Notes: generated from the sequence alone by a model not told the origin. A stretch of 64,000 nt of DNA from an uncultured Actinomycetes bacterium (GCA_963817235.1 CAWFNS010000013.1:12354-76353); one strand, 5' to 3'; shown: positions 8,984 through 41,388, counted from the first letter of the stretch. Numbers and translations: made by a program.

Positions 8984-9880
8984 CTAGACGAGCTTCTCGC
9001 GCACCACGAACTCGGCCAGCCACGCGCGGAACTCGGGTCCAAGGTCGTCCCGTCCGGCGGCCAGCTCGACGCTCGCCCGCAGCGCGTCGCGCGGGTTCCC
9101 CACGTCGTAGCGGCCGGAGTCGAACCGGTACGCGTAGACGGCCTGCTCCTGGGCGAGGGCGTTGATCGCGTCGGTCAGCTGGATCTCGCCCCCCTTGCCC
9201 GGCGCCGTCCGACGCAGCGCGTCGAAGATCTCCGGCGTGAAGACGTAGCGGCCGATCGCGGCGAGGTTCGACGGGGCTTCATCCTCCGAAGGCTTCTCGA
9301 CGATCGACAGGATGCGGACGAGGTGCTCGTCGACCGGTTCGGGGTCGATGCACCCGTACATGGAGATCTCCTGGCGGCTGACCTCCATCGTCGCGACGAC
9401 GCTTCGCCCGAACGTGTCGTGGGCGCGCAGCATCTCGGGCAGCAGCGGCACCGACGGATGGATCAGGTCGTCGCCGAGGAGGACCGCGAACGGCTCGTTG
9501 CCGACGTGCGCCTCGGCGACCGACACCGCGTGGCCGAGCCCGAGCGCCTCCTTCTGCCGGACGGTGTGGATCTCGGCCATGTCCGAGATCTGGCGGATCG
9601 TCTTGAGCTCCTCGAACTTCCCCTTCGACTCGAGGAACAGCTCGAGCTCGATGCTCCGGTCGAAGTGGTCCTCGATCGCCTGCTGCCCGCGGCTGGTGAC
9701 GATCAGGATGTCCTCGATGCCGGCTCGCACGGCCTCCTCGACGACGAGCTGGATCGCGGGCGTGTCGACGATGGGGATCATCGCCTTCGGCTGCGCCTTC
9801 GTGGCGGGCAGGAAGCGCGTGCCGAGGCCGGCCGCCGGGATGACGCCCTTGCGAACCTTCGCGTGCCCTCTGGTTCCCAC
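8984..9880 (-). CDS. galU: UTP--glucose-1-phosphate uridylyltransferase
   Basis: VIPAAGLGTRFLPATKAQPK, QKEALGLGHA, VEKP, GGEIQLTDA. Confidence 0.97.
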   Translation of the reverse strand: MGTRGHAKVRKGVIPAAGLGTRFLPATKAQPKAMIPIVDTPAIQLVVEEAVRAGIEDILIVTSRGQQAIEDHFDRSIELELFLESKGKFEELKTIRQISDMAEIHTVRQKEALGLGHAVSVAEAHVGNEPFAVLLGDDLIHPSVPLLPEMLRAHDTFGRSVVATMEVSRQEISMYGCIDPEPVDEHLVRILSIVEKPSEDEAPSNLAAIGRYVFTPEIFDALRRTAPGKGGEIQLTDAINALAQEQAVYAYRFDSGRYDVGNPRDALRASVELAAGRDDLGPEFRAWLAEFVVREKLV

Positions 9881-30959: not shown

Positions 30960-32347
30960 GTGAACGAGTTCCGGACGATCATCGAGCCCTTCCGGATCCA
31001 CTCGGTGGAGCCGCTGCGGTTCCTCACCGAGGACGAGCGCCGGGCGAAGGATCCGCGACGCCGGCTACAACCTGTTCAACCTGCACGCCGACGACGTGCT
31101 GATCGACCTGCTGACCGACTCCGGGACCGGCGCGATGAGCCGCGACCAGTGGGCCGCGATCCAGCACGGCGACGAGAGCTACGCGGGCTCGCCGTCGTGG
31201 TTCGTGTTCCTGCAGGCCGTGCAGGAGCTGTTCCCGTTCCCGCACGTGATCCCGACGCATCAGGGCCGCGCCGCGGAGAAGATCCTGTTCTCGGCGATCG
31301 CCGGAGCCGGCAAGGTGGTGCCGAACAACACGCACTTCGACACGACGCGCGCGAACGTCGAGTCGACCGGCGCCGAGGCCGTCGACCTGGTGATCCCGGA
31401 AGGACGTGACCCTGCCGCGCTGCACCCGTTCAAGGGCAACATGGACCTCGCCGCGCTCGAGCGCCTGTTGGACGAGCGCGGCGCCGACGTGCCGGTCGTG
31501 TTCGTCACGGTCACGAACAACTCCGGCGGCGGCCAGCCGGTCTCGATCGAGAACCTCCGCGGGGTCCGCGCGCTGTGCGACCGCTTCGGCGGTGCCGCTG
31601 TTCCTCGACGCGTGCCGCTTCGCGGAGAACGCGTGGTTCGTGAAGACGCGCGAGCCGGGCTACGCGGACGCCGCGGTGCCCGACATCGTGCGCGAGATGG
31701 CGTCGCTCGCCGACGGCATGACGATGTCCGCGAAGAAGGACCCGATGGCGAACATCGGCGGCTGGCTCGCGATGCGCGACGCCGACTGGGCCGAGCGCTG
31801 CCGGAACCTGCTGATCCTGACCGAGGGGTTCCCGACGTACGGCGGCCTCGCCGGCCGCGACCTGGAGGCGATCGCGCAGGGCCTGCGCGAGTGCGTCGAC
31901 GAGCACTACCTCCGCTACCGGATCCGCTCCACCGAGTACCTGGCCGACGCGCTCGTGGACGCCGGCGTGCCGATCGTGCGCCCGGCGGGCGGTCACGCGG
32001 TCTACCTGGACGCCCGCGCGCTGCTGCCGCACGTGCCGCCGCTGTCGTACCCCGGCCAGACGCTCGCCGTTGCGCTCTACGAGGCAGGCGGGATCCGCAG
32101 CTGCGAGATCGGGACGGTGATGTTCGGGATGAAGCCGGACGGTCACGAGGAGCCGGCCGCGACGGACCTCGTCCGGCTCGCGATCCCGCGCCGGACCTAC
32201 ACGCAGAGCCACGTCGACTACGTGATCGAGGTGGTGACCTCGGTGGCGGCGCGCGCCGCCGAGCTCCCCGGATACCGGATCGTCGAGCAGGCGCCGCAGC
32301 TGCGCCACTTCACCGCCCGGTTCGAACCGCTGCACCCGACCGCCTAG
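30960..32347 (+). CDS. tnaA: Tryptophanase (frameshifts ~31050 and ~31590)
   Basis: EPFRIHSVE, IDLLTDSGT, HQGRAAE, HFDTT, DACRFAENA, MSAKKD (PLP Lys), RLAIPRRTYT, LRHFTARF. Confidence 0.9.
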
Positions 32348-33600: not shown

Positions 33601-36000
33601 ATGCGGATCGCGTTCGTCTCGACCTACCCCCCGCGCCGCTGCGGCATCGCGACGTTCACCTCGGACCTGATCAAGGCCGTGCGCGAGGCCGACCCGCGGA
33701 CCCAGGCCCGCGTCGCCGCGATCGACGAGCGGAACGCCGTGCGGGCCTACGGCTCCGAGGTCCGCTGGCGGATCCGCCAGGGCAGCGCGATGCCCTACCG
33801 GGCGGCGGCGCACGAGATCGACCGGTCGAACGCCGACATCGTCTGCGTCCAGCACGAGTTCGGCCTCTACGGCCTGTGGAAGGGCGGCGGGTTCGTCGGC
33901 GATCACTGGATCGAGGGCACGTACGAGGACCACCTCACGCCGTTCCTCGAGGAGCTGAAGCAGAAGCCGGCGCTCGTGACGCTCCACACCGTGCTGCCCG
34001 ACCCGTCCCCGGCGATCCGCGACGCGGTCCGCTCGATCGCCGACGCGGCGCACGGGCTGGTGGTGATGGCGGAGACGGCCGTCACGATCCTGGACGAGGT
34101 CTACGGCGTCAGCGCGAAGCCGACCGTGATCCCGCACGGCATGCCGCACATCGAGCCCCAGGGCCGTCGCCGGCTGAAGGCGAAGCTCGACCTCGACGGA
34201 CGCCAGATCATCTCGACCTTCGGGTTGGTCGGCCCGGGGAAGGGCCTCGAGTACGTGATCGAGGCGATGCCCGAGGTCGCGGCGCGCCATCCGGAAGCGC
34301 TCTACCTGATCGCCGGACAGACCCACCCGGAACTGCTCCGCCAGCGCGGCGAGGAGTACCGCAACAAGCTGATCGAGTTGGTCGAGGAGCTGGGGCTCAC
34401 GGACAACGTGCTGTTCGTGAACCAGTACCTCGAACAGAAGGACATCATCGAGTACCTCCTGGCGACCGACGTCTACGTGACGCCGTACCTCGACCCGAAC
34501 CAGATCACGAGCGGCACGTTGTCCTACGCGCTCGGCGCCGGGAAGGCCGTGGTCTCGACGCCGTACCTGCACGCGCTCGAGGCGCTGGACAACGACCGGG
34601 GGCTCCTCGTCGAGTTCCGCTCCCCCGAGAGCATCGCGGACGCCGTGATCCGGATCCTCGACGACCCGAAGCTGAAGGCGCGCCTGGAGAAGAACGCGTA
34701 CCGCTACGCGAACCAGGCCACGTGGCCGAAGAGCGGCGCCCGGTTCCTGGCCGCGATGGAAGAGCTGGTGGCCGAGCACGCGCCGGCGCCGAAGGCACGC
34801 CGGCCCGACCGCGGCACGCTCAAGGTCGCGCACCGGGTGCACGCGAACCCGCTCATCACGCCGGCGAGCGTGACGCCGTCGCAGCCGGGGTTCGAGGTGA
34901 TCTCGACGATCAACCCCGGCGTGACGAAGCTCGGGGACGAGGTCGTGATGCTGGTGCGGGTCGCCGAGCGTCCGCGCCGGGACGCGCAGCCCGACCCGGA
35001 CGCCCAGATGATCGATCTCTCCGGCTCGCGGCCGCGACCCGTCCCGCTGCCGGGCGGCCTCCAGGCGGACCAGCTGATCGGGATGGCGTACCTGGACACC
35101 GAGCTGGAGCCGCCGAGCGTCGTGATCGGCTACGTCCCGAAGGACCTGCCGGGGCTCGACCTGTCGGATCCTCGGACGATCCGCTACCGGAACGCGGCCG
35201 GCGGGTTCACGCCCGGCCAGGACGAGTTCACCGACTACCTGTCGCACATCTCGCACCTGCGTCTGGCGCGGAGCACCGACGGGCTCGCCTTCACCGTCGA
35301 CCCGGATCCGACGGTCGTGCCCTCGACCGCGCTCGAGGAGTACGGCGTCGAGGACCCCCGGATCACGCTGATCGACGGCGTGTACCAGATCACCTACGTG
35401 GCCGCGAGCCGCCTCGGCATCTCGACGGCCCGGCTCAGCACGACCGACTTCGTGACCTTCGAACGGCACGGCACGATGCTGCAGCCCGACCAGAAGGACG
35501 TGGTGCTGTTCCCCGAGCGCGTGGGCGGCAGCTACCTGGCGTTCACGCGCCCGATGCCGGGCTCGTTCGGCCGGGTGCTCGGGCTGTGGCTGGCGGAGAG
35601 CGACGACCTGGTCCACTGGGGCAACCCGCGGCCGATCGCGACCCCGCGCCACGGGATGTGGGACGAGATGCGGATCGGCGCCTCGCTGGTGCCGATCCGC
35701 GTGGACGAGGGCTGGCTCGAGCTCTACCACGGCGTGGATCGGGCGAACCGCTACGGGATGGGCGCGATCCTGCTGGACGCCGGCGATCCCACGAAGGTCC
35801 TCGCGCGGTCACCGAAACCGCTGATGCTCCCCGAGGCCGACTACGAGCACGACGGGTTCCTCCAGGACGTCGTGTTCCCCTCCGGTCACATCGACCTCGG
35901 CGGCGGGATGATCCGGGTCTACTACGGCGCCGCCGACGCCACGCTCTGCGCGGCGGATCTCGATCTGGCCGACGTCCTCGGAGCCCTGGCGCGCGAGTAA
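33601..36000 (+). CDS. GT4 glycosyltransferase fused to a GH130 beta-mannoside phosphorylase-like domain (799 aa)
   Basis: N-half STYPPRRCGIATF, QHEFG, KGLE, QITSGTL, STPY; C-half NPLITP, VRVAERP, SHLRLARS, GVEDPRI, KDVVLFPE, LYHG, YYGAAD; uninterrupted ORF. Confidence 0.9.
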   Translation: MRIAFVSTYPPRRCGIATFTSDLIKAVREADPRTQARVAAIDERNAVRAYGSEVRWRIRQGSAMPYRAAAHEIDRSNADIVCVQHEFGLYGLWKGGGFVGDHWIEGTYEDHLTPFLEELKQKPALVTLHTVLPDPSPAIRDAVRSIADAAHGLVVMAETAVTILDEVYGVSAKPTVIPHGMPHIEPQGRRRLKAKLDLDGRQIISTFGLVGPGKGLEYVIEAMPEVAARHPEALYLIAGQTHPELLRQRGEEYRNKLIELVEELGLTDNVLFVNQYLEQKDIIEYLLATDVYVTPYLDPNQITSGTLSYALGAGKAVVSTPYLHALEALDNDRGLLVEFRSPESIADAVIRILDDPKLKARLEKNAYRYANQATWPKSGARFLAAMEELVAEHAPAPKARRPDRGTLKVAHRVHANPLITPASVTPSQPGFEVISTINPGVTKLGDEVVMLVRVAERPRRDAQPDPDAQMIDLSGSRPRPVPLPGGLQADQLIGMAYLDTELEPPSVVIGYVPKDLPGLDLSDPRTIRYRNAAGGFTPGQDEFTDYLSHISHLRLARSTDGLAFTVDPDPTVVPSTALEEYGVEDPRITLIDGVYQITYVAASRLGISTARLSTTDFVTFERHGTMLQPDQKDVVLFPERVGGSYLAFTRPMPGSFGRVLGLWLAESDDLVHWGNPRPIATPRHGMWDEMRIGASLVPIRVDEGWLELYHGVDRANRYGMGAILLDAGDPTKVLARSPKPLMLPEADYEHDGFLQDVVFPSGHIDLGGGMIRVYYGAADATLCAADLDLADVLGALARE

Positions 36001-36047
36001 GCCGCCCCGGCTGACACGCATCCTCGACCCTGGAAGACTCCGCTGCC

Positions 36048-37103
36048 ATGCTCCGACAGCTCGCCCGGTTGACGCGCCCGATCGCGGCGGCCGGCCCCGA
36101 CGCGATGGCGGTCGCCGTCTACGCCGACCGGCGCGGCTCGTCGATCCCGGCGAACGAATCCGGCCGCGAGGGCGTGGCGTGCGTCGACGACGCCGCCCGG
36201 CTGCTGGAGGTCCTGTGCGACGTATGGACGCAGACGCAGCTCCCCTGGGTCGAACGGTGGGCGCGAGGGGTGCTCGCGTTCGTGCTGTGGATGCAGGAGC
36301 CGGACGGGCGATGGATCAACTTCGTGTTCGACTGGGACGGTGCGCGCAACACGCACGGCATCACGTCGGTCACGGGGGAGAACTTCTGGCACGCGCGTGC
36401 GCTCGTCGGCGTCAGCCACGCGTGGCTGACGTTCGGCGACGAACGCGCACACGACGCGCTGCGCCTCGGGCTGGATCGCGCGATCTCCCGCCCGGCGCCG
36501 CCCGACGTGCGCGCGCTGCACGTGCTGACGGCCCGGCGCCTCATCGCCGACGCGGGCATGGTGGAGCTGGAGGCGCCGATGCGCACCTGGGTCCGCGAGC
36601 TCGCGGCGTGCCGTGAGGGGGACGTGCTGAAGAACGCCGAGCTCGAGACCGGCGTGCCGCACCTCTGGGCGCACATCCAGGAGGGTGTGCTGGCGTCCTC
36701 GGCGACCCTGCTGGACGACCCCGAGCTGCTGGAGCTCGCGATCCGCAGCGCCGACGCGCTCCTCGCGCCGGCGGTCGAGCGGGCGTTCGCGGGGCCGACG
36801 TCGAGCCCCTACGACGTCGGGGCGTGCATCTACTCGCTGGACCGGCTGCACGAGGCGACCGGCGACGGGCGTTGGTCGCGCCTGGCGACGGACGCGCGCG
36901 CGTGGTTCGACGGTCGGAACGCCGCGGACGCGCCCGTCTACGATCGCCAGCTCGGCCTCGTCGCGGACGGCGTGGATGAGGATCGGGTCTCGGCGAACTC
37001 CGGCGCCGAGGCGAACATCCAGGCGGCCGAGGCGTTGTTCGCCGACGCGGTCGCGGTGGCGCTCCGGATGGACGACCCGTTCGACGTGGCGTCCGAGGCC
37101 TAG
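36048..37103 (+). CDS. Six-hairpin (alpha/alpha)6 glycosidase-like protein, homologous to the C-terminal domain usually fused to this GT4 subfamily
   Basis: CVDDAAR, MQEPDGRWINF, WHARAL, WFDGRN, DGV, NSGAE. Confidence 0.7.
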   Translation: MLRQLARLTRPIAAAGPDAMAVAVYADRRGSSIPANESGREGVACVDDAARLLEVLCDVWTQTQLPWVERWARGVLAFVLWMQEPDGRWINFVFDWDGARNTHGITSVTGENFWHARALVGVSHAWLTFGDERAHDALRLGLDRAISRPAPPDVRALHVLTARRLIADAGMVELEAPMRTWVRELAACREGDVLKNAELETGVPHLWAHIQEGVLASSATLLDDPELLELAIRSADALLAPAVERAFAGPTSSPYDVGACIYSLDRLHEATGDGRWSRLATDARAWFDGRNAADAPVYDRQLGLVADGVDEDRVSANSGAEANIQAAEALFADAVAVALRMDDPFDVASEA

Positions 37104-38315
37104 AGCCGGCCGTCCCCCAGCTGCTCGGCCAGATCCACCAGCGCCTTGCGCGTCGAGATCGAGAACTTCGCGGTCCACGCCTGCGGCCAGGTGGAGAACT
37201 TCGCGACGACGACCTGGGCGGGGCCGTGGACCAGCACCGTCTGCCCGTTGATGCCGGAGCCCATGTACACCGGGCCGTTCGGGTCCACGACCCAGAACTG
37301 GTTGCGGTAGAAGGCGCCGCGCGGGAGCTCCCTCGCGTCGGCCGTCGGGGCGAACGCCGCGATCACGTCGGGCTCGGGGAACAGGGTGTCGCGGATCCAC
37401 GCCGCGGGCACGACCTTGTGCTTGCCGCGGCGTCCGCCCTGCAGCAGGAGCTGCCCGAACCGTGCGAGATCACGGAGCGTGCAGCAGACCCCACCGTCGG
37501 CCATCGCGTTGCCGTGCGCGTCCACCGTGACCTCGGCGTCGAACTCCGCGCCCATCGGCCGCCACAGCTCGGAGGAGATCAGGTCGGCCAGGCGCGCGCC
37601 GGCCGCGCGCTCCATCACCCACCCGAGCACGTCCGTCAGGACCGAGCGGTAGTCGAACGGGCCGCCGTGCGGTCCCTGGTTCTGCGAGCATCGGGTAGTA
37701 CGACGTGATGTCGGCGGGGAGCGTCGGATCCGTGCGCGGACGCCACAGGTAGATCTGCTCGTACACGCGCACGTCCGCGTCGAGGTTCGCGTAGTCCTCG
37801 TCGAACCTCGTCCCGGCGCGCATGTCCAGCAGGTGCCGAACCGTGCAGCCCTCGAACGACGTGCCGGCCAGCTCCGGCACGTGCGCGGTCACGAGGTCCG
37901 CCGGCCGGAGCAGCCCGCGTTCGACGAGCGAGCCGCAGACGGCGGAGGTCACCGACTTCGACACGGACATCAGCAGGTGCGTCGTATCGGGCGTCATGCC
38001 CGTGAAGTACCGCTCGGTCACGATGCGCCCGCGATGCAGCACGAGGAGACCGTCCGTGTACGTGTTCTCAAGGAACCGCGCGAACGACACCGGCCGGCCA
38101 CCGGCGTGCACCACCGCGCCCATCACGTCGCGCTCGGCGCGCGGCAGGCGCCAGACCGGACCGTCGCCGCGCGGGATCCGCGCCGTCGGGATCAGATCGC
38201 GGATGTGCTGGAACCCCCACCGGTTGAACGGCGGGTCCTGCCAGTTCGCGAGGGTGACGAGCCGCTCCGGCGGGAACGGCGGCGCTCCCTGCATCAGGTG
38301 AAGGTCGTCGCTCAC
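37100..38315 (-). CDS. Serine hydrolase, beta-lactamase/NylB (6-aminohexanoate-dimer hydrolase)-like (frameshift ~37685)
   Basis: NWQDPPFNRWGFQH, LMSVSKS (SxxK), LLDMRAG, FDYRS, RDLARFG, YRNQFW, GINGQ. Confidence 0.9.
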
Positions 38316-39047
38316 GGATCCGCCGGGGTGTCCGGGTCCGGCGCGGGGGCGGGGGTGGGATCGGCGTCGTCCCCGACGGGGGCCTGACCTCCTTGAGCGC
38401 GCCACGGCGCAACTCGATCCCTGCCGAACTGCGAGACCACGAGGGCGACCGCGCTCACCAGGTAGAGCTGGCCGAAGAGCGCCTCGGTCACGGCCAGCAT
38501 CTTGACGCCGTTCTGCGCGGCCGTGAAGTCGCCGTAGCCCACCGTGGTGAGGGTGACGTAGCTGAAGTACGTGATGTCGGTCGAGGAGGCGGTGTTCGTC
38601 TGGACGAACAGCGGCGTGTGGTTGACTTCCGCGATCGCCCGGTACACGAACGAGAAGAACAACCCGATCAGCAGGTACAGGCACAACGCGCCGGCCACCA
38701 CCTGGACGTTGACCACCTTCTCGTGGGAGAGACGACGGATGATCGCGATCGGGGCCGCGAACGCCATCAGGGCCCCGACCGTGGCGGTCGCGAGGTTCGG
38801 ACCGGTGTCGTTCCCGAGCCAGATCGACAACGACCGCGGCGCCGACCGCGACCACGACGGCGATCCGGGCGATCCGCAACACCAGACCCCGCTCGGACAT
38901 CCGCAGGATGAACAGCAACGCGGCGCCCTCAGCGATGAGCGAGAGCACCTTGATCCAGCCGCGCTCGTCGGAGAACGCGAAGCCGAAGATCGAGGCGGTG
39001 ATGAGCAGCAGCGCGATGCCGAACCGCGCCGGCTCGAGCTGTCTCAC
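38312..39047 (-). CDS. Potassium channel family protein (frameshift ~38828)
   Basis: YFSYVTLTTVGYGD selectivity filter, EALFGQLY; several N-terminal TMs. Confidence 0.88.
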
Positions 39048-40497: not shown

Positions 40498-41388
40498 GTG
40501 ACGCACAGCCTGCTCCTGGACGTCTCCAGCATGATGTACCGGTCGTACTTCGCGTTGCGGGAGCCCGGGATGTTCGCGAAGGACGGGCGACCGGTGGCCG
40601 CGGTGCACGGCTACCTCGACATGGTCACGAGGCTGCTGACGACCCGGCACCCCGACGAGGTCGTCCACGTCTACGACCACGACTGGCGCCCGATCGCGCG
40701 CACCGACATCTACCCCGCCTACAAGTCGAAGCGCCAGCCCGATCCCGAGGACCTGCCCGCGCAGTTCGTGCTGTTGCGGTCCGTCCTGGACCACACCGGC
40801 ATGCTCCAGGCGCAGACCGAGGGCTGGGAGGCCGAGGACGCGATCGGCGCGTTCGGGGTCGACGCGCGCGACGACGACCGGATCGAGATCGTCTCGGGTG
40901 ATCGCGACCTGATCCAGCTCGTCCGCGACCCCGTCGTGAAGCTGCTGTTCACCGTCCGCGGCGTCTCGGACCTCCTCGAGCTGGACGAGGCCGGCGTCCT
41001 GAAGAAGTACGGGGTGCCGGCCGACCGCTACGGCGAGTTCGCGATCCTCCGCGGCGATCCCTCCGACGACCTGCCGGGCGTCCGCGGGATCGGCGAGAAG
41101 ACCGCGCGGGCGCTCGTGACGGCGTTCCCGTCGATCGACGCGATGCTCGAGGCGGCGGGCCGCGGCGATCCGGCGATCACGCTCGCGAACCGCACGAAGC
41201 TCCTGTCCTCGCGCGAGTACCTCGACGCGATGCGGCGGATCGTGCCGATCAACGCGGACGCGCCGCTGTCGCTGTGGGCAGGCGACCGGGACGACGCGGT
41301 GCTCGGTGAGCTCGCCGACGAACTGGGGCTCGGCGGACCGGTGCAGCGGGTGCTCGCGGCGCTCGACGCGCCCGCGGGCGATCGCTGA
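40498..41388 (+). CDS. Stand-alone 5'-3' exonuclease / flap endonuclease
   Basis: LLLD..YRSYF, YK.KR, EAEDAI, SGDRDL, LRGDPSD.LPGVRGIGEKTA. Confidence 0.93.
   Translation: MTHSLLLDVSSMMYRSYFALREPGMFAKDGRPVAAVHGYLDMVTRLLTTRHPDEVVHVYDHDWRPIARTDIYPAYKSKRQPDPEDLPAQFVLLRSVLDHTGMLQAQTEGWEAEDAIGAFGVDARDDDRIEIVSGDRDLIQLVRDPVVKLLFTVRGVSDLLELDEAGVLKKYGVPADRYGEFAILRGDPSDDLPGVRGIGEKTARALVTAFPSIDAMLEAAGRGDPAITLANRTKLLSSREYLDAMRRIVPINADAPLSLWAGDRDDAVLGELADELGLGGPVQRVLAALDAPAGDR

Follow-up and report, generated by a model that had tools for sequence, protein, structure and literature searches.

A GT4-GH130 fusion and its six-hairpin partner in uncultured soil bacteria: a candidate two-gene unit for a small mannose-containing glycoside

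What does a bacterium build, or take apart, with a protein that joins a glycosyltransferase to a phosphorylase on a single polypeptide? The question is raised by a 64,000-nt stretch of DNA from an uncultured Actinomycetes bacterium (GCA_963817235.1, CAWFNS010000013.1:12354-76353; hereafter the window), in which an open reading frame (ORF) at 33601-36000 on the plus strand (P0001, 799 aa, stop codon TAA at 35998-36000) carries a family 4 glycosyltransferase (GT4) domain followed by a family 130 glycoside hydrolase (GH130) domain. A 47-nt spacer (36001-36047) separates it from a second plus-strand gene at 36048-37103 (P0002), whose 351-aa product is an (α/α)6 barrel of the YPO2471 (PDB 7TEM) family and is called SIX here. 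A preliminary description of the locus, made from the DNA alone, had placed all three modules in one obligate pathway of mannoside synthesis and turnover, analogous to Leishmania mannogen. The fusion itself, the kinship of its GH130 domain and the co-occurrence of the modules all stand, whereas the obligate pathway, priming by GT4 with a nucleotide sugar and the mannogen analogy fare less well. With somewhat more confidence than doubt, we read the two genes as a self-contained unit, probably cytoplasmic, whose three modules act on one small mannose-containing glycoside. The enzyme families concerned are known; what is new is the fusion, the atypical GT4 active site and the SIX family.

Integrity of the fusion gene

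The ORF runs without interruption over its 799 aa and joins the two domains as the preliminary description had it, with the Pfam models PF00534 (Glycos_transf_1; aa 192-368, 80 bits against a cut-off of 26.4) and PF04041 (Glyco_hydro_130; aa 545-794, 174.3 bits against a cut-off of 26) both matched. The motifs quoted there are also in place: PPRRCGIATF at aa 10, RVAERP at 453, SHLRLARS at 551 and KDV at 632 of the fusion, and, in SIX, CVDDAAR at residue 45 and NSGAE at residue 317. No stop codon occurs in any plus-strand frame between 34674 and 34870, as had been claimed for the linker (in the +1 frame, the nearest stops lie at 34673 and 34871), and the third plus frame is free of stops over the entire fusion gene. 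Since G+C is about 72% across the window, a stop-free linker is by itself weak evidence for a genuine fusion, and because both flanking genes are frameshifted, the integrity of the gene needed checking.

Relatives and independent contigs agree on an intact gene. The best 120 of 5811 database relatives (those at E ≤ 0.001 among 8000 scored) all carry both Pfam domains, at 703-814 aa and 71-98% identity, and an independent database protein is 98% identical to the fusion along its full length. A search for other GT4-GH130 fusions, as had been proposed, found the two domains in a single frame, with the SIX gene adjacent, at 63 of the 80 genome loci closest to SIX. Contigs from four soil metagenome runs (shares 0.23-0.35) were mapped to the window, and the interval 34700-34900, singled out earlier for such a check, is crossed gap-free by two DNA contigs that stem from two further soil studies: X1 record 3 spans 34354-34982, and X6 record 28 corresponds to 34497-36555 with a sole gap at 36005, in the intergenic spacer. 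Contigs from soil RNA libraries cover both domains, and one of them (X10 record 13, 34744-34951) covers the linker; RNA libraries may contain DNA, so this cover is only a weak hint of expression, and parts of the window lacking it (for example 36021-36544 in X3) are uninformative. Codon-position G+C is like that of real genes, with third-position values of 0.97 in the fusion and 0.95 in SIX. The frameshifted neighbours are what could be said for an assembly or gene-calling artefact or for a decaying gene; that explanation, to which we give practically no weight, is already refuted by the intact frame, by relatives sharing the architecture, by the independent contigs and by the invariant catalytic residues described below, and the earlier judgement that an indel artefact was unlikely is upheld.

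Full-text literature searches, judged mostly from listings and abstracts, returned no description of a GT4-GH130 fusion or of the SIX family. Parts of PMC7660257 put more than 99% of GH130 phosphorylases among single-module proteins and give GH130-GT81 and GH130-GH130 as the only combinations in CAZy in 2018; set against this rule and these two combinations, the GT4-GH130 fusion is an undescribed architecture, and it occurs abundantly among uncultured Actinomycetota, Dormibacterota and Chloroflexota of soils.

Phosphorylase and barrel modules

The GH130 domain (34825-35997, plus strand; aa 409-799) follows a variable inter-domain linker (34771-34824, plus strand; about aa 391-408, with residues 396-403 modelled at pLDDT < 50), and PDB alignments start the domain at about aa 408. 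Its resemblance to β-1,2-mannoside phosphorylases, noted in the preliminary description, was confirmed by a PDB sequence search, in which Lin0857 of Listeria innocua (1e-74) and Uhgb_MS from a human gut metagenome (8.6e-71) came first, followed by Teth514_1789 (2.9e-45) and Teth514_1788 (9e-45), with β-1,4 enzymes more distant than these Thermoanaerobacter phosphorylases of β-1,2-mannobiose and β-1,2-oligomannan. Foldseek, run with the full-length model, returned the five-bladed β-propellers of GH130 at TM 0.87-0.93, among them those of Lin0857 and Uhgb_MS (5b0q, TM 0.90, 36% identity; 9erg, TM 0.93, 35% identity). NCBIfam ranked NF050092 (BtaManbiosPhlase) first at 368 bits, as a relative and not an equivalog, and gave 197 bits to NF052550 (β-1,2-mannobiose phosphorylase) and only 57 bits to its β-1,2-mannosidase model.

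Active-site residues point the same way. Counted by hand along the PDB sequence alignment to Uhgb_MS, R47, R88, E136, D137, K184, R202, R242 and H261 of that enzyme correspond to R453, R525, E584, D585, K632, R650, R691 and H710 of the fusion. On the roles assigned in parts of PMC12814180, R453 and E584 would set β-1,2 specificity, D585 would be the proton donor, R525 would belong to the lid, and K632, R650 and R691 would bind phosphate, one of them being the Arg by which phosphorylases can be told from hydrolases. All eight but E584 are invariant in 28 of 28 fusions sharing 54-91% identity, and E584 is conserved in at least 90% of them. H710 presumably binds phosphate as well. With D585, K632, R650, R691 and H710 all present, the residue set is of phosphorylase type, and since the phosphate-binding residues are kept, the domain should be a phosphorylase; grouping with hydrolases, which the preliminary description had named as fatal to its case, was checked on these residues and the phosphorylase assignment survived.

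The features of subfamily GH130_4, to which both Lin0857 and Uhgb_MS belong, are present too, compared here by residues: the R453/E584 pair and a lid, the loop that follows the first strand, with R525 in the place of the pocket-closing Arg. Lin0857 and Uhgb_MS are single-domain proteins of about 350 aa acting on β-1,2-mannobiose and short β-1,2-mannosides; here the same catalytic Asp, β-1,2 pair, phosphate-binding Lys, Arg, Arg and His, and lid Arg sit in a domain fused behind GT4. The lid insertion differs in size, at about 91 aa (34975-35247, plus strand; aa 459-549, hand-mapped on the PDB alignment), where Uhgb_MS has 48 and Lin0857 has 54; five β-strands are predicted in it, and D520, L521, D523, P524, R525 and R528 are invariant. 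Loop L2 is changed as well, G654 and V659 replacing P206 and N211 of Uhgb_MS, in which this loop is tied to GDP-mannose use. Parts of PMC12814180 have the GH130_4 lid and its Arg restrict Lin0857 and Uhgb_MS to a degree of polymerization (DP) of 3, and comparison of the closed, enlarged lid with those of the two enzymes suggests that the substrate is short, with two or three sugar units. From sequence and model, the domain is thus predicted to be an inverting β-1,2-mannoside phosphorylase for short substrates.

A quick IQ-TREE analysis of GH130 domains united all fused forms with the ten split forms of Limnocylindria type in a single clade (SH-aLRT 97), with the GH130s of other arrangements outside it and the order within the clade left open; rows L082-L089 of that tree are labelled 'separate' only because their loci cut off the GT4 part. 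Metagenome-assembled genomes (MAGs) labelled Planctomycetaceae, Acidiferrales and Saccharimonadales (L011, L051, L052, L054, L055) also carry fusion or split genes, and because these nest within the GH130 clades of Actinomycetota, Dormibacterota and Chloroflexota, mis-binning or gene transfer is indicated.

SIX matched no Pfam or NCBIfam model. Its AlphaFold2 (AF2) model (pLDDT 94.7, pTM 0.93) has twelve helices arranged as an (α/α)6 barrel, in line with the six-hairpin partner first recognized from motifs, and the only solved close relative is YPO2471 of Yersinia pestis, a structural genomics entry (7TEM; Foldseek TM 0.82, VIA Z 40.6, rmsd 2.2 over 329 residues, phmmer 4.7e-10 over aa 257-330). 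The two proteins share 19-20% identity, YPO2471 being annotated as exported and larger (about 405-427 aa); no paper turned up in a full-text search for this name.

The next-nearest folds are N-acylglucosamine 2-epimerase, cellobiose 2-epimerase and mannose isomerase (TM 0.65-0.71; AGE epimerases at VIA Z 26-28, top 28.2), ahead of GH76 (Z 23-26) and the mycobacterial hydrolase MmpH (7QSJ, Z 22.2), with GH15 and GH9 as further barrel matches. This order invites the idea that SIX is an AGE-type sugar 2-epimerase or isomerase feeding the GH130 phosphorylase, and a precedent exists in the pairing of an epimerase with GH130 cited in PMC7660257 (Senoura 2011). In mannan catabolism, cellobiose 2-epimerase supplies mannosylglucose phosphorylase with its substrate. 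AGE enzymes rely on histidines for catalysis. An alignment of 34 SIX sequences has no invariant or near-invariant histidine; no Pfam AGE model matches, and 7TEM at Z 40.6 lies far above the AGE entries, so that we hold an epimerase to be highly improbable. Invariant instead are Y25, E41, C45, D47, D48, R51, N91, F92, T106, S107, W114, R117, W286, D307 and E321, of which D47, D48, D307 and E321 are predicted to form an acidic pocket; this invariant acidic set and the lack of an invariant His favour a glycosidase-like site over an AGE-type one. In GH76 α-mannanases an adjacent Asp-Asp pair is catalytic (it is named in the title of PDB 6SHM), and SIX has an invariant D47-D48 pair, which, compared by sequence conservation and overall fold, may or may not coincide with it.

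The family comprises 568 representatives at E ≤ 1e-3, most of them free-standing and 340-390 aa long; more remote relatives exceed this size, and some bear a CBM9 domain. Among the loci inspected, L090-L099 and L121-L126 hold distant SIX-like domains in open frames of about 640-860 aa that lack a GT4 domain. Together, the longer frames and the CBM9-bearing relatives point to a branch of the YPO2471 family with larger, possibly secreted members. SIX-like domains are also fused to an NTP_transferase domain scoring 105 bits on a mannose-1-phosphate guanylyltransferase model (P0123, 639 aa) and to a sugar ABC solute-binding domain (P0125, 842 aa). Two apparent GH130-SIX fusions (P0124, P0233) were set aside as likely read-through of frameshifted contigs, given their patchy similarity with arginine-rich stretches between. 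Apart from weak leads to C5-epimerase and GH9, an Atlas search with SIX yielded clusters without names.

A linked unit and its possible pathways

Are the three modules joined elsewhere? At all 80 loci closest to SIX, its gene lies beside GT4 and/or GH130. The window's arrangement, a GT4-GH130 fusion followed by SIX, accounts for the 63 loci noted above; GT4, GH130 and SIX are three successive genes at ten (Chloroflexota/Limnocylindria-labelled MAGs and one labelled Saccharimonadales), the GT4/GH130 gene is frameshifted at three, GT4 and SIX stand without GH130 between them at two, and the remaining two are cut by contig ends. Where genes were called in the split forms, GT4 and GH130 overlap by 1-4 nt in five and are 2 nt apart in the sixth, and the fusion and SIX genes overlap by a few bases in many relatives. 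No other neighbouring gene recurs at more than 21 of the 80 loci. None of the 80 has a GT4-SIX fusion, and the claim that this GT4 subfamily is usually fused to the barrel is not borne out.

Such fusions do exist further afield, as became apparent from 50 further loci drawn from a sample of 301 Actinomycetota genomes. There GT4 and SIX, with a GT4 of the same subfamily, share one frame of about 720-840 aa (1173 in L123) at 12 loci (L100, L104, L109, L112-L115, L117-L120, L123) and are separate genes at nine (L103, L106, L108, L111, L127-L131), eight of these nine with a GH130 match in the locus. At two more (L105, L116) they lie in overlapping different frames, as separate genes or a frameshifted fusion. 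Fused GT4-GH130 forms occupy eight loci, all from the window's own family, and at the other 19 a remotely SIX-like domain lies within an open frame that is longer or unrelated, with no GT4 match in the flanks fetched. The orders [GT4-SIX][GH130] and [GT4][SIX][GH130] thus both occur in other Actinomycetota. Across the 301 genomes, in which related genomes are not independent, a SIX-like match was found in 61 and GH130 in 55: 48 have both, 13 SIX only, seven GH130 only (a set that includes the unpublished G120 and G174) and 233 neither. Co-occurrence of the modules, in several gene orders and fusions, is therefore borne out.

On this basis the unit could work as follows. As its sequence and model suggest, the GH130 domain would interconvert α-mannose-1-phosphate plus an acceptor with a β-1,2-mannoside plus phosphate. 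GT4, a divergent GT-B transferase of retaining type, would make the α-linked acceptor or, alternatively, use a mannose-1-phosphate or GDP-mannose pool buffered by the phosphorylase. SIX may trim or hydrolyse the product or generate primers, by analogy with MmpH and the transferase ManT, and the whole would probably serve to make and recycle a sugar held as a reserve or for protection. Parts of PMC7660257 describe GH130 phosphorylases as cytoplasmic. The source genome holds a ManC-like gene and PGM/PMM-type mutases, and no transporter gene turned up among the neighbours of the operon or the recurrent neighbours scanned at the 80 loci. A working precedent, by analogy, for a cycle of GT4 and barrel hydrolase is the mycobacterial methylmannose polysaccharide, for which parts of PMC9883506 describe a cytoplasmic GT4, ManT, and a small six-hairpin hydrolase, MmpH, serving one intracellular mannose glycan. 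The likeness has its limits: that system lacks a phosphorylase and the unit here a methyltransferase; MmpH, at rank 24 among the structural neighbours of SIX and 15% identity, is an analogue and not a family member; and ManT (7QSG), which keeps its ribose-binding Glu321, is not among the eight sequence matches of the GT4 domain. In that system MmpH supplies the primers.

Several findings weigh against this reading, beginning with the GT4 domain itself (33601-34770, plus strand; aa 1-390). Its GT-B fold is apparent from its neighbours MshA, GlgM, PimB', PimA and BshA (TM 0.69-0.81), and its subfamily is marked by PRRCGIATF (aa 11-19), QHEFG (84-88), FGLVGPGKG (207-215) and TPYLDPNQITSGTLSYA (294-310). 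In PDB alignments to MshA and PimA, however, neither glutamate of the EX7E motif is present: N300 takes the first position (PimA E274) and Y309 that of the second, ribose-binding Glu (MshA E324, PimA E282 and, in parts of PMC9883506, ManT E321). The invariance of Y309 in 28 of 28 fusions, within a motif that is itself almost invariant (N300 is conserved in at least 90%), indicates a site under selection and not one in decay. The diphosphate-binding Lys is retained as the invariant K214 (PimA K202, MshA K236), but the corresponding Arg (PimA R196, MshA R231) has no counterpart, G208/L209 standing there. Parts of PMC9883506 report that ManT is active without this Arg and that its E321A mutation abolishes activity. 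With both glutamates replaced, nucleotide-sugar use and the donor are uncertain, so that the domain, judged by its residues, may not act as a normal Leloir transferase and the priming step proposed for it earlier is doubtful. The loss is not family-wide: the signature PR.CGIATF, QHE[FY]G, FGLL..KG, TPY...Q..SG.L is common to GT4s fused to or adjoining SIX in other lineages, and one subgroup (L103, L106, L108, L130, L131) has Glu at both positions.

The other adverse points concern the unit as a whole. The full-length AF2 model, at pTM 0.55, does not fix the relative placement of the two domains with confidence. The 368 bits on NF050092 miss its equivalog cut-off of 550; given this shortfall and the 91-aa lid, substrate size and acceptor of the GH130 domain may differ from those of Lin0857. 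The sequence is compatible with either direction of flux, synthesis or salvage. GH130 is also not universal with the core, 13 of the 61 SIX-positive genomes lacking it, and six of the 12 GT4-SIX fusions lie directly beside a GH94 gene instead (about 790-900 aa, with both GH94 Pfam domains; L113:2492-4870, L114:2383-4755, L118:5206-7911, L119:2432-4801, L120:5467-7839 and L123:5483-7996).

This last point bears on how the unit is composed. Four of the other GT4-SIX fusions have a GH130 match in the locus (L100, L104, L115, L117), and the remaining two (L109, L112) have short flanks. One GH94 neighbour is similar along its full length to cellobiose phosphorylases (3qde, 4.9e-118), and the GH94 cases supply five of the 13 genomes with SIX only; since one family (five genera) and a single genome of a second family account for all six, the number of independent events is small. 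Both GH94 and GH130 are inverting phosphorylases, unrelated to each other, with α-hexose-1-phosphate as a product. Because the GT4-SIX fusion adjoins either GH130 or GH94, GT4 plus SIX looks like a constant core with a swappable phosphorylase of disaccharide type, GH130 here and GH94 elsewhere. An obligate pathway of all three modules is therefore too strong a claim, the more so with two of the 80 closest loci holding GT4 and SIX and no GH130 between them. In the surroundings of these fusions we also noted a SAM methyltransferase gene (in L112, L113, L119 and L120) and a thiolase gene (in L112, L113 and L123).

Other pathways have to be weighed against a single shared glycoside. In print, the nearest counterpart is the cluster Teth514_1785-1796 of Thermoanaerobacter sp. 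X-514, in which two GH130 genes lie beside a GT4 gene, a mannose-1-phosphate guanylyltransferase gene and genes for hypothetical proteins and which, in parts of Chiku et al. 2014 (PMC4264767), is proposed to link mannose-1-phosphate to GDP-mannose use. Transferred to the window, such salvage would have GH130 phosphorolyse imported β-1,2-mannooligosaccharides, a separate guanylyltransferase convert the mannose-1-phosphate to GDP-mannose, and GT4 spend this on an unrelated α-mannoside such as an envelope glycan, with SIX as an accessory hydrolase. The SIX-NTP_transferase fusion P0123 fits this scheme, as does the ManC-like gene, which lies elsewhere in the source genome (TIGR01479 matched there in its cupin part only). 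Yet the Thermoanaerobacter genes are separate, their GH130_6-type enzymes are lidless, and neither the guanylyltransferase nor the ABC transporter nor the GH5 enzyme of that cluster accompanies the unit here: the window's operon and the recurrent neighbours scanned at the 80 loci include no ABC transporter or other transporter gene, no secreted glycosidase and no guanylyltransferase, all three of which the Thermoanaerobacter cluster has. That GT4, GH130 and SIX are so tightly fused or coupled speaks for a substrate in common, and GT4 lacks the ribose-binding Glu expected of a GDP-mannose enzyme (its role as given in parts of PMC9883506); on balance, salvage of this type is unlikely. The replaced glutamates instead lend some appeal to a nucleotide-free phosphate shuttle, in which GT4 would use hexose-1-phosphate directly, like the GT4 trehalose phosphorylases, and mannose-1-phosphate would pass between the domains, converting β-mannoside to α-mannoside and back with phosphate acting catalytically. 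The near-invariant motif around N300 and Y309, the pairing of the core with two kinds of inverting phosphorylase, a fusion that would favour hand-over of a sugar phosphate, and the inclusion in GT4 of at least one phosphorylase (parts of PMC10913872 and PMC7660257) are all compatible with it. The shuttle is drawn by reasoning from these features, a subgroup of the same subfamily keeps both glutamates, and the fusion in P0123 suggests nucleotide sugars for at least one organism, all of which leaves it decidedly unlikely. We are just as reserved about its extension, in which GT4 and SIX would be the core of widespread, undescribed cytoplasmic glycan machines that use GH130 for mannose and GH94 for glucose, feed hexose-1-phosphate to the fused GT4, and interconvert or co-assemble β- and α-glycosides without nucleotide sugars, phosphate serving as the catalytic carrier.

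A reserve like mannogen, with the unit building and phosphorolysing an intracellular β-1,2-mannan polymer, was the analogy first drawn. Leishmania makes and phosphorolyses its intracellular β-1,2-mannosides with GT108 enzymes (MTPs) that share the five-bladed propeller and mechanism of GH130 and use GDP-mannose or mannose-1-phosphate; parts of PMC12814180 add that β-1,2-specific GH130 phosphorylases have weak GDP-mannose transferase activity. The unit appears cytoplasmic, in keeping with such a reserve, as is the lack of a transporter among the neighbours scanned, and the enlarged lid leaves some room for longer chains. The MTPs, however, belong to another CAZy family, make polymers of DP 4-40 and have no GT4 or barrel partner, whereas the domain here sides with the lid-bearing GH130_4 enzymes, whose products are limited to DP 3, conserves the lid Arg R525, and scores far lower against the lidless long-chain enzyme Teth514_1788 (9e-45). 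A polymer is accordingly less likely than a short product, and we regard a mannogen-like reserve as quite improbable.

The interest of the unit reaches beyond this locus. To our knowledge, the hosts of cytoplasmic β-1,2-mannoside phosphorylases are not known to make β-1,2-mannosides, and the fusion provides a handle on what many of these bacterial enzymes act on. A reserve or protective sugar, should that be the product, would be relevant to the survival of slow-growing soil bacteria when they starve or dry out. β-Mannosides are hard to synthesise, and the fused enzyme is attractive for making them; both the atypical GT4 site and the interchange of GH130 and GH94 are amenable to standard enzymology.

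Surroundings of the operon

The source genome represents an uncultured Actinomycetota lineage and comprises 2.99 Mb in 13 contigs at 76% completeness, so that failure to find GH94 in it does not establish absence. A scan of the window for promoters and terminators yielded nothing useful. The genes flanking the operon are not concerned with carbohydrates and encode an HD-domain protein, a β-eliminating lyase, a β-lactamase-fold protein, an ion channel, OsmC and a 5'-3' exonuclease. The lyase gene (30969-32332, plus strand) matches a 459-aa homologue (L017) at about 91% identity in three frames, and its two frameshifts make it either a pseudogene or a product of indel errors in the assembly. Downstream, two frames are needed to align the β-lactamase-fold gene (37103-38327, minus strand) with a 410-aa homologue (L011), the frameshift lying near 37680; the gene converges on SIX, its 3' end overlapping the SIX stop codon by 4 nt. 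A GalU-type UTP-glucose-1-phosphate uridylyltransferase gene (8984-9880, minus strand; 348.7 bits, above the cut-off) lies 24 kb upstream of the operon and is unlinked to it. The exonuclease gene (40498-41388, plus strand), a few kilobases downstream, is the commonest other neighbour among the related loci, and its recurrence at 21 of the 80 probably reflects synteny among close relatives.

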